This document shows, one piece after another, positions 31,311-36,939 of a stretch of 64,000 nt of DNA. Under the pieces are notes generated by a model. The model did no database searches. It had not been told where the DNA came from and saw only the letters and a list, made by a program, of their open reading frames with translations. The position numbers and the translations under genes were made by a program. Each line of letters opens with the position of its first letter. Position 1 is the first letter of the stretch. The DNA comes from Escherichia phage PE37: sequence record NC_054929.1, one strand, 5' to 3'.

Positions 31311-31784
31311 ATGAAATCATATACTCAATTTTTAAATGAAGCGGTGTTAAATGAAGCATCTAGCACCGAAATTCAAGCTGTCGCAAAAGCAGCCATTGCA
31401 GCGGGTAAATATTCTTACAAAGATGCTTCTGATGAATCGCGATTCCAGTTTGCACGCGACATGAAAGCGGAAGGATTTACGGGAAATGCAGTTAGTATGG
31501 CCTGGAAAAGTTTAGTTGCTACTGGCGCTGCTTTTGCAAAGGCTTCGGGTAAACCTGCTCCTAAAGCAGATCCTAAAGTCGCACAAGAGAAAAATATTGT
31601 TAAAGGAATTATCTCCAAATATGAAGCTATCCTTAAAGAGCTTTTAGTAATCAAAACTGAAGGCCAAAAACTAGCTCGTGCTTATAGTTTCAAAGATAAC
31701 CCACATGCTCACTCTCTTGAGTATGTTGAAGACATCCAAAAAATTATTAAAGACCGCATTTGGTCTGCTAAACAAATCAAATAA
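31311..31784 (+). CDS. capsid-targeted internal-protein candidate
   Basis: 157 aa; N-terminus MKSYTQFLNEA resembles the internal-protein capsid targeting sequence; late promoter upstream. Confidence 0.65.
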   Translation: MKSYTQFLNEAVLNEASSTEIQAVAKAAIAAGKYSYKDASDESRFQFARDMKAEGFTGNAVSMAWKSLVATGAAFAKASGKPAPKADPKVAQEKNIVKGIISKYEAILKELLVIKTEGQKLARAYSFKDNPHAHSLEYVEDIQKIIKDRIWSAKQIK

Positions 31785-32578: not shown

Positions 32579-33172
32579 ATGAACACACTGAAGAAAATTG
32601 TTGAGTTTATTCGCACTAAACTTGGTTCTGCTATGGCTAAAAATCTATCTGTTGAAGAGCAGTATACTGCCGCAGCAGCAAAATTGCTTGATAAAATTAA
32701 AGATCTAAAAACTGCTTCTGTTAAATCTATTAATGAAGAAAAGCGTATTCGTGAACTTATTGTCGAAAAGAATAAGCAGGCCGAATCAAAAGAGCGTGAA
32801 ATTCGCAAGCTCCTTTCGGAAGGTCAAGATGTAACAATGCATGCTAAACTTGGTTTACTATATCGTCGAACAGCTGAGCAGTTGACTACTAAAGCTGATG
32901 GTTATGCTGAAATGCGAATTGAAATCGCCAAGAAAGTAGTTGAGTTAGATGATGCTCGCCAAGAACTTGCAGTTAAATTGGAATATATCCGTGAAACTCG
33001 TGCAGCGAATGCCCTTGGAATTAGTACTGCCGATGATGTAGTTGAAATTGCAGCGCTGACTAAGGTTGATATTGAAGATACTCTTGCTCGAGTTGAAACC
33101 TTTAACGGTAATATTTCTGGGGTTGAAACCACCTCTGCCGATGTTCAGGAATATATTAATTCTCTGAAATAA
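32579..33172 (+). CDS. coiled-coil protein, possible PspA/IM30-like
   Basis: 197 aa, predicted almost entirely helical; N-terminus loosely resembles PspA. Confidence 0.6.
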
Positions 33173-33178
33173 TGATAA

Positions 33179-33192
33179 GGGGCTTCGGCCCC
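33179..33192 (+). other. UUCG-tetraloop hairpin
   Basis: GGGGCTTCGGCCCC directly after stop codon, no U-run. Confidence 0.5.
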
Positions 33193-33213
33193 TATTACTT
33201 GGAGTAAGTAGGA

Positions 33214-33822
33214 ATGAAAATGCAAAGTGATTTCAATTCAATGTTTGAAGAGTTCCAAAGACAGGTTGATGTTCCAGACCAATTATTAAATGCTCTTAAA
33301 CGTATGGCAGAAGGACGTAATTATTATTGGGGTTCTTCATATGAAACTGTTGAAAGTCTTTCTGGAAGATTTTCTAGAGGTAAAAAGTCTTTAATACGTC
33401 CTGGAATACTTATTAACAGTATTGAATCAATTCATTTATTAACATGCGATTTTGACGTTGAATTTACTGATTTTGTTTCTCCTGAATGGACGGTCTGTTA
33501 TTTAAACGACGATTATGATTATCTTGGCGTTTATAGTTTAAGTGATGCATGGTTTAAACGTAATTTACAAAAGTCAAATTTATTCTATATTGATACTACT
33601 GTAAAATTTCAGGGCAAGAAATATTTCTTTACTCTTATAGTTGACTCTGAAACAAAATATGAAAATAAACGTATTCTTAGTAAAAAGAATATCTTAACTA
33701 CTGTCGATGATCTTTTTGATAAATTCGTAGAAAATCCCAATTTTGAAAGCGATTTATTATTAGAAAAATTTGTTAAGGAATGTAGAGAATATGTCAAAAC
33801 CATCACTATACCTTCCAAGTAA
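33214..33822 (+). CDS. hypothetical protein
   Basis: 202 aa ORF, RBS GGAGTAAGTAGGA. Confidence 0.6.
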   Translation: MKMQSDFNSMFEEFQRQVDVPDQLLNALKRMAEGRNYYWGSSYETVESLSGRFSRGKKSLIRPGILINSIESIHLLTCDFDVEFTDFVSPEWTVCYLNDDYDYLGVYSLSDAWFKRNLQKSNLFYIDTTVKFQGKKYFFTLIVDSETKYENKRILSKKNILTTVDDLFDKFVENPNFESDLLLEKFVKECREYVKTITIPSK

Positions 33823-34183
33823 ACCGTTGAAGTATGAATTAAAGCGTCAGATAATTTCTACTGATGTGTTAATAGGTCCTGTGGTAGCTGTATCATTTGT
33901 GATTCTGCTGATTGCTGGAATGGTTATAGACGTTATGACTGATATTGGATCTAATACAATATTTGCGTCAACGCTAATTCTTCCATTGGTAGTTCCGCTT
34001 TTATTAGTACCTATAAATTGGATAGGATATTGGTATCAAGGAAGACACTATCGTAAACGTGTACGTGATTGGAAAGCCCAGTGCAAAAAGATTAAAAAAG
34101 AACATCAGCTTAAACTTGCTGCGTATGAATTTGATGAAATTATGAAATTTGTTAAGGAATCACGATGCAAAAGCCAAAACTAA
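33791..34183 (+). CDS. 2-TM membrane protein, paralog 1
   Basis: Start at MSKPSLYLP; two hydrophobic helices; C-terminus FVKESRCK. Confidence 0.55.
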   Translation: MSKPSLYLPSKPLKYELKRQIISTDVLIGPVVAVSFVILLIAGMVIDVMTDIGSNTIFASTLILPLVVPLLLVPINWIGYWYQGRHYRKRVRDWKAQCKKIKKEHQLKLAAYEFDEIMKFVKESRCKSQN

Positions 34184-34527
34184 ATAAAGCCAAATATTCG
34201 TTTCCAGAGGCACTATTAATTCTTGCCGTATCAGCATTTACAGCTCTTGCGGGTAGTCTTATTGGATTATTAATTGACTGTTTTATTTTAAACATCGACG
34301 GCACAGTAATTATAACAGAGGTTTGGAGTGAACTTCGTTATACTATAGCGATTTCATTATTTTCATTCTTTGGTACCATGTTATATTTTCATTATGATAA
34401 TTTTAAAATAAATTGGCAAAGAAAAAAAGATTACAAAATACAATTAAAAGAATATAATAGCTACATGTCTTATATTGAAAAAGAATCAATGGAAGAGTTT
34501 GTGAGTGATTGTAGGAAAATTAAATGA
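34165..34527 (+). CDS. 2-TM membrane protein, paralog 2
   Basis: 120 aa, two TM helices, C-terminus FVSDCRKIK, ATGA overlap with next gene. Confidence 0.55.
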   Translation: MQKPKLNKAKYSFPEALLILAVSAFTALAGSLIGLLIDCFILNIDGTVIITEVWSELRYTIAISLFSFFGTMLYFHYDNFKINWQRKKDYKIQLKEYNSYMSYIEKESMEEFVSDCRKIK

Positions 34528-35012
34528 TTTTAAAAACTCGCTGGTATGATTTAGATGACGGGGATGATGGCATTTCAGTTAATAGAGTTGACTGGAATGG
34601 CTGTTCCGAAGATATGAAAAATTTGCTGATTAGGGAGTTTAGAATGGGATATCAACCAGTTAAGCCATCTACTGCAACAGATGATAAATTCGTGTGTATT
34701 CATAATGGTCGCGCTAAATTAACGAACGCTGATTGGTTCACAGATAAAATTATGATTCTGTGGTATATTATTAGTCTTCCTGTGACATCATTCGTATTTT
34801 ACTTTTTTATAAAAAATCCAATGGACAGAATAGGAGATTGGATTCTTTTAACCATACTTGTTAATATTTTTACTGCAGCAATATTATCTGGGATATGGTA
34901 CACGTTCATTGAAATGCCATGGCGTTTACGCAGACAACAAAAGATTTTTGATGAAAAGAAATATACCCAAAATTTAAATAGCTTTATCACTGAATGCAGG
35001 AAATTAAAATGA
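34524..35012 (+). CDS. 2-TM membrane protein, paralog 3
   Basis: 162 aa, two TM helices, C-terminus FITECRKLK, ATGA overlap with nudE. Confidence 0.55.
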   Translation: MILKTRWYDLDDGDDGISVNRVDWNGCSEDMKNLLIREFRMGYQPVKPSTATDDKFVCIHNGRAKLTNADWFTDKIMILWYIISLPVTSFVFYFFIKNPMDRIGDWILLTILVNIFTAAILSGIWYTFIEMPWRLRRQQKIFDEKKYTQNLNSFITECRKLK

Positions 35013-35449
35013 AAACATTATCAGTTGGTATTATCTTTATGACAGAAGATAAAGATTTATTTATGGGTCGGGTTACTGGTTCTCGTAAGCCTGGAATGAT
35101 GGCACATCGCTGGGATATTCCAAAGGGCCGTGTAGAAAATTCTGATTTAAGCGCATTAGATGCAGCACGAAGAGAATGTTTAGAAGAGACTGGTTTTAGC
35201 AATTATAATCCAGACCTTCTAGAAGACCTAGGTGTATTTAAATATTCTAGTAATAAAGACTTACAGTTATTTTATTATACGATTCCAGTAGAGCATGAGA
35301 TGTTCAGAAATTGCCATTGCGAGTCTTATTTTGAAAATAAAGATGGTGTTATGATTCCAGAGATGGACGCTTTTGCTCTTATTCCTCATACTCAGTGGCA
35401 ATATGTGATGGGTCCTTCACTTTACCGAATAATGAACAACCTCTTTTAA
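35009..35449 (+). CDS. nudE: Nudix hydrolase NudE
   Basis: Nudix box-like PKGRVENSDLSALDAARRECLEETGF; start at ATG after AGGAAA (alternative ATG at 34994). Confidence 0.8.
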   Translation: MKTLSVGIIFMTEDKDLFMGRVTGSRKPGMMAHRWDIPKGRVENSDLSALDAARRECLEETGFSNYNPDLLEDLGVFKYSSNKDLQLFYYTIPVEHEMFRNCHCESYFENKDGVMIPEMDAFALIPHTQWQYVMGPSLYRIMNNLF

Positions 35450-35980
<531 letters not shown>

Positions 35981-36039: not shown

Positions 36040-36456
36040 ATGACTCGTATTAATTTGACTTTAGTATCTGAACTTGCTGATCAACATTTAATCGCAGAAT
36101 ACCGTGAATTGCCACGTGTTTTTGGTATAGTTCGTAAACATGTGGCAAATGGTAAACGGGTTAAAGATTTTAAAATATCTTCCGAGTTTATTTTAGGTTC
36201 TGGTCATGTTACGTTCTTTTACGATAAGTTAGAATTTTTGCGAAAGCGTCAATCAGACATTATAACGGAATGCTTAAAACGCGGGTTTAGTATAAAAGAT
36301 ACTGAAGTTCCTGACATCGGCGATATTCCAGCAGAATGGAAAAATGATTATAATCCATGCAAATCAGCTATTAAATTGAGTCAACAACGACTCAATGAAA
36401 AAATTTTAATGAAGCCACACTGGTACAAGTATTACGGCAAAAATATTTACATTTAA
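36040..36456 (+). CDS. denV: endonuclease V (pyrimidine dimer glycosylase) DenV
   Basis: 138 aa, [17 protein letters not shown]..., close to T4 DenV from memory. Confidence 0.95.
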
Positions 36457-36465
36457 AGGAAACAC

Positions 36466-36939
36466 ATGAAAACATATCAAGAATTTATTACTGAAGCAGC
36501 TATTAATTCTCAAATTATTGCTGAATCTTTTACTGATCTTTTGAAATTTAAAAAAGGTCAAAAAATCACTGCTGTATTGGATGATGGTACAGAAGTTGAG
36601 ATGGATGTACAGGGATATAATTATGCAGTAGATGGAAAACTGTATAATAAATCTCATGCTAAATTTGATTCATTTGACGACTTTGTTAATACAGTTGAAG
36701 ATGAAAAAACTCGTCGATCCATTGCAACTGGTGATGCTAAGGTTCTTATGGCACATGGTCATGAACGCATTCGCGCTAAACAGAATAAAATGGGCGAAGA
36801 TAATTTCGCATTAGTTGGTTATCAATCTGGTAAACAAACTTATGGTTATCAGCGTACTGCTACCATGTATAATAAAAATGGTAAAATTGCCTTTGTGAAT
36901 AGTAAGGGTTCTATTCAGTACGTTAAATCGTTCAAATAA
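36466..36939 (+). CDS. internal protein (ipII/ipIII-position), capsid-targeted
   Basis: 157 aa, N-terminal MKTYQEFITEA capsid targeting sequence, basic C-terminal region. Confidence 0.7.
   Translation: MKTYQEFITEAAINSQIIAESFTDLLKFKKGQKITAVLDDGTEVEMDVQGYNYAVDGKLYNKSHAKFDSFDDFVNTVEDEKTRRSIATGDAKVLMAHGHERIRAKQNKMGEDNFALVGYQSGKQTYGYQRTATMYNKNGKIAFVNSKGSIQYVKSFK

Follow-up and report, generated by a model that had tools for sequence, protein, structure and literature searches.

A conserved C-terminal box on four consecutive small proteins encoded between e.6 and nudE in a T4-like phage

The closest described counterparts of the genes analysed here are e.5, e.4, e.3 and e.2 of phage T4 (older names msp4, msp5, msp6 and msp7; GenBank L13089), orthologues with identical order, overlaps and neighbours, which are annotated as 'conserved hypothetical, predicted membrane protein'. 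T4 Imm and other membrane proteins of the hyperplastic region are likewise small, early, non-essential, located in the inner membrane and variable between relatives, but Imm shows no sequence relation to e.4, e.3 and e.2 and carries no box in its tail. PspB and PspC of Escherichia coli and LiaI of Bacillus subtilis are small membrane anchors of PspA-family proteins. The phage proteins resemble them as small inner-membrane proteins with cytoplasmic segments, encoded beside a long helical-hairpin protein (here the candidate e.6), and differ in that the phage set includes a soluble protein, e.5, bearing the same box; Pfam and NCBIfam searches with the membrane proteins yielded nothing resembling PspB, PspC or LiaI. 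The capsid targeting sequence of the T4 internal proteins (N-terminal MKTYQEFIxE) can serve as an analogy for a portable address tag, being a short terminal peptide carried by unrelated, fast-evolving neighbours in a plastic region. It differs in being N-terminal, cut off by the prohead protease and present on late virion proteins, while the box is C-terminal; nothing points to capsid entry of the e.5–e.2 proteins, and we treat the four-residue FIxE resemblance as chance. Two ORFs with a capsid targeting sequence, at 31311 and 36466, occur in the 64,000-nucleotide stretch of Escherichia phage PE37 DNA analysed here (NC_054929.1; hereafter the window). Literature searches on the gene names, the msp names, the Pfam numbers and PspA in T4-like phages returned no relevant paper, and no description of the shared C-terminal box was found in searchable papers.

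An earlier note on this DNA had reported three tandem ORFs downstream of a 202-aa ORF, and all four were recovered at their positions. Judged by sequence and gene order, the three ORFs are orthologues of T4 e.4, e.3 and e.2, and the window belongs to Tequatrovirus: its DNA is 96–98% identical to Tequatrovirus genomes, and the order e.6-e.5-e.4-e.3-e.2-nudE-e matches that of RB51, F2 and T4. With gene names taken from RB51 and T4, the locus comprises:

32579..33172, plus strand: e.6, 197 aa, all-helical, the most conserved gene of the cluster, with a candidate PspA/Vipp1-like fold
33178..33193, plus strand: GC-rich UUCG hairpin in the e.6/e.5 gap, placed on the minus strand by a terminator scan
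33214..33822, plus strand: e.5, soluble, 202 aa, no hydrophobic segment, box near the C-terminus (phrog_2607)
33791..34183, plus strand: e.4, 130 aa, 32-nt overlap with e.5, predicted N-in/C-in hairpin with a +9 tail
34165..34527, plus strand: e.3, 120 aa, 19-nt overlap with e.4 (phrog_2330)
34524..35012, plus strand: e.2, 162 aa, a 73-aa N-terminal domain followed by predicted hairpin and tail (phrog_2203)
35009..35449, plus strand: nudE, Nudix hydrolase (Pfam NUDIX, E 3.7e-14)
35486-35980: e (lysozyme), downstream of nudE

L13089 lists the T4 counterpart of the e.6/e.5 hairpin as a putative stem_loop. An alternative annotated nudE start, 34994, falls within the e.2 box codons; RB51 and L13089 use the short form, T4 RefSeq and F2 the long one. 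Comparison with the T4 e-region ORFs, as the earlier note had proposed, thus yielded direct orthologues, with protein identities to T4 of 86% (e.4), 82% (e.3), 93% (e.5) and 85% over 97 aligned residues (e.2). The T4 e.2 reference carries a –1 and then a +1 frameshift and is annotated with 102 aa, whereas e.2 of the window is an intact 162-aa protein. PHROGs matched e.4 (phrog_2604, E 5.9e-70), e.3 (E 6.2e-58) and e.2 (E 1.4e-79) over the whole protein, and e.5 with E 1.4e-108. Homologues of e.2 formed 96 clusters; those of e.3 formed 44, and these e.3 clusters were all at least 76% identical. Precomputed database annotation places Pfam PF26873 on e.4 homologues and PF26896 on e.2 homologues; our searches of Pfam and NCBIfam gave no meaningful family for e.5, e.4, e.3 or e.2, and the GenBank labels 'sulfurtransferase', 'DNA primase' and 'host specificity protein' attached to these genes were backed by no profile. 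PADLOC models produced zero matches for e.6, e.5, e.4, e.3 and e.2, PDB sequence searches (e.6, e.5, e.2 and an e.6 profile) found nothing, and a Foldseek comparison of the e.2 model with viral structures recovered its own family alone. When 1.84 billion representative proteins were searched exhaustively with a profile, eight matched, all of them T4-like e.4, e.3 or e.2, and no distant or cellular relatives emerged; the best 120 matches listed for the mixed-alignment A1 profile search were filled by close e.4 and e.3 clusters.

The feature common to these proteins is a short C-terminal box, F-[VI]-x-[ED]-[CS]-R, or in fuller form approximately [LIM]-x-x-F-[IV]-x-[ED]-C-R-x-h. The related tail endings previously noticed on e.4, e.3 and e.2 were found as described, and the motif is also present on the upstream e.5. 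A six-frame translation of the whole 64 kb contains six instances of F[VIL]x[ED][CSI]R, compared with about 1.0 in shuffles. Four of the six are found at most 11 residues from a stop, in four genes that follow one another:

33769..33786, plus strand: box FVKECR of e.5, its codons AAG GAA being the likely Shine-Dalgarno for e.4
34148..34165, plus strand: box FVKESR of e.4, AAG GAA being the Shine-Dalgarno 5 nt before the e.3 ATG
34498..34515, plus strand: box FVSDCR of e.3, the R-K codons AGG AAA being the e.2 Shine-Dalgarno, with an ATGA stop/start overlap
34983..35000, plus strand: box FITECR of e.2, AGG AAA being the Shine-Dalgarno for the nudE start at 35009

The box residues are among the invariant columns in each family's alignment. 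F..[CS]R is retained by 214 of 228 cluster representatives, the remaining 14 being truncated or frameshifted. The tail end forms an amphipathic helical box: in four of the five tails examined it is the most amphipathic 11-mer, the exception being e.4, in which a basic membrane-proximal segment scores higher. The Cys is not universal, since its position in e.4 is occupied by S, I or V and in some distant members by M, V or L. The internal e.4 sequence DWKAQCKKIK, to which MAFFT once aligned the e.3/e.2 tails, was considered as a second box and not counted; its W94 and C98 never vary among the aligned e.4 sequences, but the more distant e.4-like proteins of PEi20 and VAC36 retain the W alone.

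The box is retained in orthologues from Mosigvirus, Dhakavirus, Kanagawavirus and Klebsiella phage VAC36, and in the e.5-position genes of six other lineages. Aeromonas phage avDM5 carries a C-terminal variant on its e.5-position gene, followed by a 67-nt gap before the next gene, and in RB43 a box-like variant lies some 30 residues ahead of the C-terminus. Across all these phages the rest of each protein is only 24–52% identical. Further small proteins of the same cluster in other genera bear the box near the C-terminus as well, among them the soluble PEi20 ORF137 and a soluble 94-aa ORF of VAC36, and e.2 of VR5 and dhaeg keeps it despite a different downstream gene.

As the earlier note had claimed, the ribosome-binding site of each following, overlapping gene is embedded in the codons of the motif. 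The Shine-Dalgarno makes use of the free x-[ED] codons (AAG GAA, GAG GAA, AAG GAG, AAA GGA) or of R-K (AGG AAA), the next ATG follows 5–10 nt downstream, and the genes overlap by 4–32 nt; the e.3 ATG sits within the e.4 R-C codons CGA TGC. The repeated element might act chiefly at the nucleic-acid level (as a conserved site for ribosome binding or translational coupling, or for a regulator on the mRNA), with the amino-acid motif as a by-product. In favour of this, all enterobacterial examples have the ATG at this distance from AAGGAA, GAGGAA, AAGGAG or AGGAAA in box codons, and two junction pairs are more similar than 99.4% of control pairs. We nevertheless regard it as improbable: F, C and R stay constant while their codons change (Arg AGA/AGG/CGA/CGT, Cys TGT/TGC, Phe TTT/TTC), the Shine-Dalgarno shifts between two places in the box, Rfam gave no match, and the box persists with the gap of avDM5, about 30 residues before the stop in RB43, and with exchanged downstream genes in VR5 and dhaeg. 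The variation in Arg and Cys codons and the lack of an overlapping downstream start in Aeromonas indicate selection at the protein level. The box is thus real and selected as protein, and the start overlap reflects the tight gene packing of T4 with no special junction element. As the next gene overlaps them, dual coding could account for part of the conservation of the e.5 and e.4 tails. The E-C codons (GAA TGY) were also considered as an out-of-frame source of ATG and rejected, being usable by the disputed long nudE start alone; the same out-of-frame reading at the e.5 and e.3 boxes gives ATG-TAG and TTG-TAG.

At the DNA level, a conserved junction sequence had been proposed for the whole series. 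Measured against 4278 control junction pairs, this applied to two of the six pairs (e.5>e.4 with e.4>e.3, and e.3>e.2 with e.2>nudE), which ranked in the top 0.5–0.6%, but the other four were ordinary. The similarity is not confined to the Shine-Dalgarno bases. The single notable exact repeat is the 16-nt AAATTTGTTAAGGAAT:

33766..33781, plus strand: exact repeat, copy 1, at the e.5 end
34145..34160, plus strand: exact repeat, copy 2, at the e.4 end

Upstream of their boxes, e.4, e.3 and e.2 are each predicted to form a small N-in/C-in hairpin of two helices with a cytoplasmic tail. They share a common plan of basic N-terminus, first membrane helix, short acidic loop, second membrane helix and a tail ending in the box, to which e.2 adds its 73-aa N-terminal domain, and K+R counts are consistent with this topology. 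The following segments were assigned, mostly by Kyte-Doolittle hydropathy:

33854..33928, plus strand: e.4 membrane helix 1, residues 22-46, mean 2.37
33959..34033, plus strand: e.4 membrane helix 2, residues 57-81, mean 1.79, best 19-residue window 2.48
34207..34287, plus strand: e.3 membrane helix 1, residues 15-41, mean 2.07
34339..34395, plus strand: e.3 putative membrane helix 2, residues 59-77, marginal, mean 1.11
34743..34811, plus strand: e.2 membrane helix 1, residues 74-96, AlphaFold2 helix 74-95, mean 2.10 (76-96)
34833..34910, plus strand: e.2 membrane helix 2, residues 104-129, AlphaFold2 helix 103-160, mean 1.90 (106-129)

Hydropathy therefore does find membrane helices in these proteins. 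The claim of two hydrophobic helices in each holds clearly for e.4 and e.2, while e.3 has one strong and one marginal segment; the latter (59-77) is aromatic, contains no charged residue and reaches a 19-residue mean of about 1.3. Similarly, a basic tail is present in e.4 (net +9) and e.2 (net +5) but hardly in e.3 (net +2 only). The AlphaFold2 helices of e.2 (74-95 and 103-160) suggest that the second membrane helix continues unbroken into the tail up to residue 160, in a model with a pLDDT of 70.9 that drops to about 50 across the final 20 residues. Within Tequatrovirus, the membrane helices and the periplasmic loop vary and the cytoplasmic tail is the least variable region.

The three proteins had been taken for paralogs that arose by serial duplication. 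For the tails, profile comparison bears this out: hhalign aligned e.4 with e.3 (E 2.3e-5, 24 tail columns) and e.3 with e.2 (E 2.8e-5, 16 tail columns), whereas e.4 against e.2 was not significant (E 0.038, probability 1.4%), and Smith-Waterman z values were 3.8, 4.1 and 1.1, respectively. The membrane parts share the same architecture but do not align between families, and the proteins, e.5 included, fall into four separate PHROGs, so that the comparison speaks for homology of the tails alone and whole-gene paralogy is at most putative. The common N-terminus M-x-K-P-x-L of e.4 and e.3 together with the z value of 3.8 makes a tandem duplication of these two plausible. On such sequence comparisons serial duplication of the series is likewise plausible; alternatively, the tails could have spread through partial duplication of the e.5 3' end.

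A further explanation sees a recombination hotspot in the box-coding junction, where phages would exchange gene cassettes and so shuffle the hyperplastic region in modules. The 16-nt exact repeat at two successive junctions would fit, as would the blocks of about 2.5–4.5 kb of extra ORFs in Mosigvirus, Dhakavirus, Kanagawavirus and VAC36, which start exactly at the stop of a box gene (e.3 in Mosigvirus and Dhakavirus, an e.4-like gene in Kanagawavirus and VAC36) and one of whose genes, RB69ORF133c-like, has a box itself. Yet in other genera the inserted blocks between e.3 and e.2 show a box at the left border only, the right border being a gene that ends in ...EFPMEGW and lacks it. Moreover, the sole event that can be reconstructed directly, the e.4::e.2 hybrid of UFV10, is a 901-bp deletion at a 7-nt microhomology (TCCTGTG) within the first membrane helices and not at the junction, four of the six junction pairs resemble each other no more than random T4 junctions do, and 16 nt is short for homologous recombination. 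Cassette exchange at the junction, as suggested by the earlier note, is thus not borne out, and we consider the hotspot distinctly unlikely.

Values of dN/dS between 0.12 and 0.46 indicate real genes under relaxed constraint, e.4 and e.3 (0.32–0.46) contrasting with e.6 and e (0–0.06). Natural truncated and hybrid alleles of these genes exist. CRISPRi-ART knock-downs in T4 gave scores from –0.95 to +0.32, all 'Not Fit' (PMC11879866, supplementary file 15). The lysozyme gene e was likewise 'Not Fit' in that screen (PMC11879866), and such negatives are consequently weak evidence. One way to read this pattern, with a minor though appreciable chance of being right, is that each of the three works on an envelope target of its own, for instance in counter-defence or superinfection exclusion on the model of T4 Imm. 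Function would then reside in the variable helices and loop, while the tail would stabilise the protein near the membrane in a generic way and bind no common partner, a corollary to which we give the same small weight. The concentration of variability in the membrane helices and periplasmic loop, the elevated dN/dS of e.4 and e.3, the frequent natural truncation, loss and fusion, the restriction of the family to T4-like phages and the knock-downs without laboratory fitness effect are all compatible with it. It leaves unexplained, however, why the same box is found on the soluble e.5, PEi20 ORF137 and VAC36 94-aa ORF and why the box outlasts the rest of e.5 as far as the Aeromonas phages; PADLOC, Pfam and NCBIfam offered no match in its support.

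The location of these genes, which encode small membrane proteins and precede the lysozyme gene by two genes, had also raised the idea that their products serve lysis; these would act as holin, antiholin or spanin-like proteins together with endolysin e. Late-promoter motifs were located only before e:

35452..35472, plus strand: two T4 late-promoter motifs TATAAATA, starting at 35452 and 35465, between nudE and e

Scanning detected neither late-promoter nor MotA-box motifs within the e.5–nudE run, and no late-promoter motif upstream of e.5–e.2; a sigma-70 promoter scan of the region gave matches no commoner than in shuffled sequence. In the T4 record L13089, the annotated sigma-70-type promoters are confined to sites upstream of e.8, e.7 and e.6. 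Pfam and PHROGs yielded no holin, antiholin or spanin match, and e.4 and e.3 are separated from e by 3–5 kb in both Mosigvirus and Dhakavirus. In T4, holin t, antiholin rI and the spanins pseT.3/pseT.2 map elsewhere, and e is translated from late transcripts only. We thus do not favour a lysis role and rate it highly improbable.

On balance, we are inclined to regard e.4, e.3 and e.2 as accessory genes, non-essential in the laboratory, in a packed run, and the box as a putative shared cytoplasmic docking helix. Together, e.6, the hairpin, e.5, e.4, e.3, e.2 and nudE constitute one tightly packed run, in which no internal promoter motif was detected. The overlapping stop/start packing places the initiation region of the next cistron inside or directly after the box, and translation of e.5, e.4, e.3, e.2 and nudE should be coupled. 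The box would serve as a docking or assembly helix through which the hairpins and e.5 bind one common partner, or each other. An old tandem duplication of a box-to-box unit may have given rise to e.4, e.3 and at least the tail of e.2.

As partner, e.6 would be a speculative candidate. Foldseek of the e.6 model returned Vipp1 for all best matches, and hhalign was negative for e.6 against a single E. coli PspA sequence and weakly positive against three PspA-family sequences. In an extended form, T4-like phages might encode a phage-shock-like module for membrane maintenance, with e.6 as a PspA/Vipp1-type scaffold (ESCRT-III superfamily) that is recruited or regulated by the box; we rate this as unlikely. 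The F-[IV]-x-x-C-R helix of e.5 and of a changeable set of two-helix anchors (e.4, e.3, e.2, RB69ORF133c-like and others) would contact e.6 at the inner membrane. The pair e.6/e.5 would represent an ancient core, kept as far as the Aeromonas phages, and the anchors lineage-specific additions that might have arisen by duplication of the box-bearing gene end.

The genes themselves were already known; what is added here is a short cytoplasmic box that at least five or six small proteins, otherwise unrelated, have in common, their genes invariably following closely downstream of the strongly conserved e.6. Should the box prove to be a docking peptide, a block of orphan genes would be tied to one function, and if e.6 is a PspA/Vipp1 relative, the phages would encode a membrane-stress system of their own. 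If neither holds, the locus would represent ordinary T4 gene packing. The case shows a protein motif and a downstream Shine-Dalgarno on the same codons, both of them kept. More than 100 T4 genes, e.2–e.6 included, have no known function, and for this group the box provides a testable handle.

The three ORFs that the earlier note had described as tandem two-helix membrane paralogs (33791–35012) are, going by the RB51 and T4 annotations from which gene names were assigned, T4 e.4, e.3 and e.2. They are already known T4 ORFs, carried in annotations for decades as conserved hypothetical proteins with a predicted membrane location, and formerly named msp5–msp7 in L13089 (T4). The region 33100–35500 matches 510 phage records at 90–98% identity, nearly all from Tequatrovirus, and the following genes were assigned:

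32579–33172, plus strand, e.6
33214–33822, plus strand, e.5
33791–34183, plus strand, e.4
34165–34527, plus strand, e.3
34524–35012, plus strand, e.2
35009 (or 34994)–35449, plus strand, nudE
35486–35980, plus strand, e (lysozyme)
36040–36456, plus strand, denV

Only short ORFs (≤71 aa) were present on the minus strand, and an Rfam search of the region gave no match. GenBank commonly labels e.3/e.4 homologues 'sulfurtransferase' (once 'DNA primase') and e.6 'host specificity protein', labels backed by no profile; one record names an e.6 homologue 'shock protein A'. Nearby ORFs at 31311–31784 and 36466–36939 (Ip4 by RB51 annotation) begin with MKSYTQFLNEA and MKTYQEFITEA, which we take to be starts of the capsid targeting sequence type, as on T4 internal proteins. 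In T4, ipII and ipIII lie between e and denV, whereas neither is found there in the window.

The shared C-terminal motif, roughly F-[VI]-x-[ED]-[CS]-R and here termed the box, proved to be real and is carried by four consecutive genes. A six-frame translation of the whole window contained six instances of the pattern F[VIL]x[ED][CSI]R compared with about one in shuffles, an enrichment far beyond chance, and four of the six instances were the C-termini of e.5, e.4, e.3 and e.2. Boxes were also retained in orthologous loci from six further lineages.

Boxes in orthologous loci of six further lineages
Mosigvirus (Shf125875): e.5 FIMECREY..., e.4 FVKEIRCKSLNS, e.3 FIKECRK, e.2 FITECRNLR; an extra two-helix protein (RB69ORF133c-like) ends FIKECRGK
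Dhakavirus (dhaeg, VR5): FIAECREY..., FIKEVRNGTA, FIKECKS, FIEECRK
Kanagawavirus (PEi20): FVEQCR, FIRNVRRK, FIQMCRR (on a soluble 96-aa protein), FIKGCR
Klebsiella phage VAC36: FIKHCRE, FLKEMRK, FIKYCRG
Aeromonas phage avDM5: ...LFVDYCRRTASKK at the C-terminus of the protein following e.6; a 67-nt gap precedes the next gene
RB43: LEKFIHSCKKNV, about 30 residues before the C-terminus

Outside the box, these proteins were only 24–52% identical or unalignable across lineages. The box codons vary (Arg AGA/AGG/CGA/CGT; Cys TGT/TGC; Phe TTT/TTC), and F..[CS]R was retained in 214 of 228 cluster representatives, the other 14 being truncated or frameshifted. Retention of the box across lineages with varied codons indicates that selection acts on the peptide.

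The motif does coincide with the downstream start, as had been claimed. Successive genes from e.5 to nudE overlap by 32, 19, 4 and 4 nt, and the downstream Shine–Dalgarno sequence lies in box codons, either at the free third and fourth positions (K-E as AAG GAA or AAG GAG, E-E as GAG GAA, K-G as AAA GGA) or, where these encode T-E or S-D, at the R-K codons (AGG AAA), with the next ATG 5–10 nt further on. The Cys two residues past the box Arg of e.4 is dictated by the e.3 start, because CGA TGC contains its ATG. Compared as DNA, no more than two junction pairs were unusually alike (top 0.5–0.6% of 4278 control pairs); the box codons account for this likeness, and one exact repeat of 16 nt is part of it. 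Such a coincidence is expected for a C-terminal peptide motif in a genome with overlapping cistrons, and probably also provides translational coupling. Annotations of the nudE start are inconsistent: T4 RefSeq and F2 place it at 34994, an ATG that lies within the box codons of e.2 (GA ATG C) and has no Shine–Dalgarno sequence, RB51 and L13089 at 35009, an ATG preceded by AGGAAA.

Hydropathy analysis supported the membrane helices, with two clear ones each in e.4 and e.2, and one clear helix plus a marginal uncharged segment in e.3. With 30 homologues as input, AlphaFold2 modelled e.2 (pLDDT 70.9) with helices at residues 74–95 and 103–160, the latter suggesting that the second membrane helix runs unbroken into the tail. 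Lys and Arg are concentrated in the N- and C-terminal segments of all three proteins while the loops are acidic or neutral, which points to an N-in/C-in topology. Variation within Tequatrovirus is greatest in the membrane helices and loop and least in the tails. The box was the most amphipathic part in four of five tails examined (hydrophobic face at positions –3, 0, +1, +4 and +7, counted from its F), the exception being e.4, where a membrane-proximal basic segment was more so. In the e.4 alignment of Tequatrovirus, Mosigvirus and Dhakavirus, W94 and C98 (within residues 91–102) are invariant; their segment, DWKAQCKKIK, was once MAFFT-aligned to the e.3/e.2 boxes, and of this region only K-E-W remains in the more distant e.4-like proteins from PEi20 and VAC36.

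Serial duplication, the origin first suggested, could plausibly account for the tails and for the e.4/e.3 pair. Significant profile–profile similarity was limited to the tails (e.4 versus e.3, 24 columns, E 2.3e-5; e.3 versus e.2, 16 columns, E 2.8e-5), e.4 versus e.2 gave none, and PHROGs places these genes in separate families. As e.4 and e.3 share an M-x-K-P-x-L N-terminus, whose codons lie where each gene overlaps the preceding tail, and give a Smith–Waterman z of 3.8, tandem duplication of a box-to-box unit would fit this pair; for e.2, these comparisons would allow homology to be claimed for the tail alone. It is on e.5 that the box has its greatest age and widest distribution, so the 3′ end of that gene may be the source of the tails.

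Cassette exchange at the junction, also proposed, was not supported. Extra gene blocks in other genera do begin exactly at the stop of the upstream box-bearing gene, but end with a gene lacking the box. Moreover, the only reconstructable rearrangement, a 901-bp deletion in UFV10/UFV05, had its ends in the first membrane helices, at a 7-nt microhomology (TCCTGTG), and created a 106-aa hybrid, e.4(1–31)::e.2(87–162) (UFV10 locus L003, 3001–3321; the same protein is P0127 from UFV05). This in-frame natural hybrid stands in for e.4–e.3–e.2 in UFV10; it has kept the box and a hairpin of two helices, and it still overlaps nudE.

Shortened alleles are frequent: e.2 occurs at 102 or 122 aa, the T4 reference being among these, and e.3 at 97 aa. 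Compared with window 34524–35012, T4 e.2 (locus L008, 2992–3461, minus strand) is annotated as 102 aa owing to two frame changes, –1 in an A-run and, 74 nt further on, +1; the distal part, with the box, thereby regains the original frame, yet behind a stop codon. Further phages carry the 102-aa allele and 122-aa forms (proteins P0219, P0222, P0213–P0218). Homologues of e.3 with 76–97 aa (P0037–P0039, P0042, P0043) reflect a recurrent frameshift in the A-rich run encoding RKKDYK, with loss of tail and box. A second terminal-motif family, absent from the window, comprises three to five mostly tandem ORFs of 65–106 aa ending in W-[VFYIQA]-x-S-S-x-x-C or W-x-P-S-S-C directly before the stop. In Mosigvirus, Dhakavirus, Kanagawavirus and Klebsiella phage VAC36, it is inserted downstream of e.3 or an e.4-like gene; where an e.2 was observed, the insertion lies between that gene and e.2.

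Second terminal-motif family in related phage loci
L004, 4231–5025
L005, 124–786
L007, 1352–2597
L009, 1822–2896 and 3236–3436
L011, 6067–7118 and 7442–7639

Database searches returned no family match (Pfam, NCBIfam) or defence model match (PADLOC) for e.5–e.2, and PDB sequence searches with e.6, e.5 and e.2 no solved structure; Foldseek of the e.2 model against viral structures found its own family only. When 1.84 billion representative proteins were searched exhaustively with a profile, every hit was one of the T4-like proteins themselves. dN/dS was 0.32–0.46 for e.4 and e.3, 0.12–0.29 for e.2 and 0–0.06 for e.6 and e. In a T4 CRISPRi knock-down screen, e.2–e.6 were scored 'Not Fit', as was e (PMC11879866, supplementary file 15). 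The suggested lysis role found no support: late promoter motifs were confined to the nudE–e interval and the sigma-70-type promoters annotated in L13089 lie upstream of e.8, e.7 and e.6, so that an early accessory role fits e.4/e.3/e.2 better. L13089 also annotates a hairpin after e.6; in the window, the e.6–e.5 intergenic region (33178–33213) holds the UUCG-loop hairpin GGGGCTTCGGCCCC. Past it, upstream of the e.5 start, lies GGAG (33201), the tetranucleotide cleaved by T4 RegB in early mRNAs.

The most conserved gene of the region is e.6, found in 1105 records of Escherichia, Klebsiella, Enterobacter and Aeromonas phages, and a box-bearing e.5-type gene follows it directly in every lineage examined, RB43 being the exception, with a 65-aa ORF in between. 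The single-sequence AlphaFold2 model of e.6 (pLDDT 74.5, ~90 in the core) shows a third helix besides a long helical hairpin. Vipp1 took all ten top places among the Foldseek matches in the PDB (best E 3e-4), CdvB, CHMP1B and PspA ranking lower, and hhalign against approximate PspA/Vipp1/LiaH sequences aligned residues 1–63 to 1–63 (E 0.002, probability just 14%). We regard kinship to PspA/Vipp1, as the model suggests it, as a lead, not a result. This resemblance motivates the reading, which we consider unlikely, of a phage Psp-like module in which membrane anchors and an accessory protein would dock via the box. The searchable literature appears to contain no description of the box itself, of how widely it is spread across lineages or of its constant association with e.6, and our best inference is that the box represents a shared cytoplasmic docking or assembly helix.
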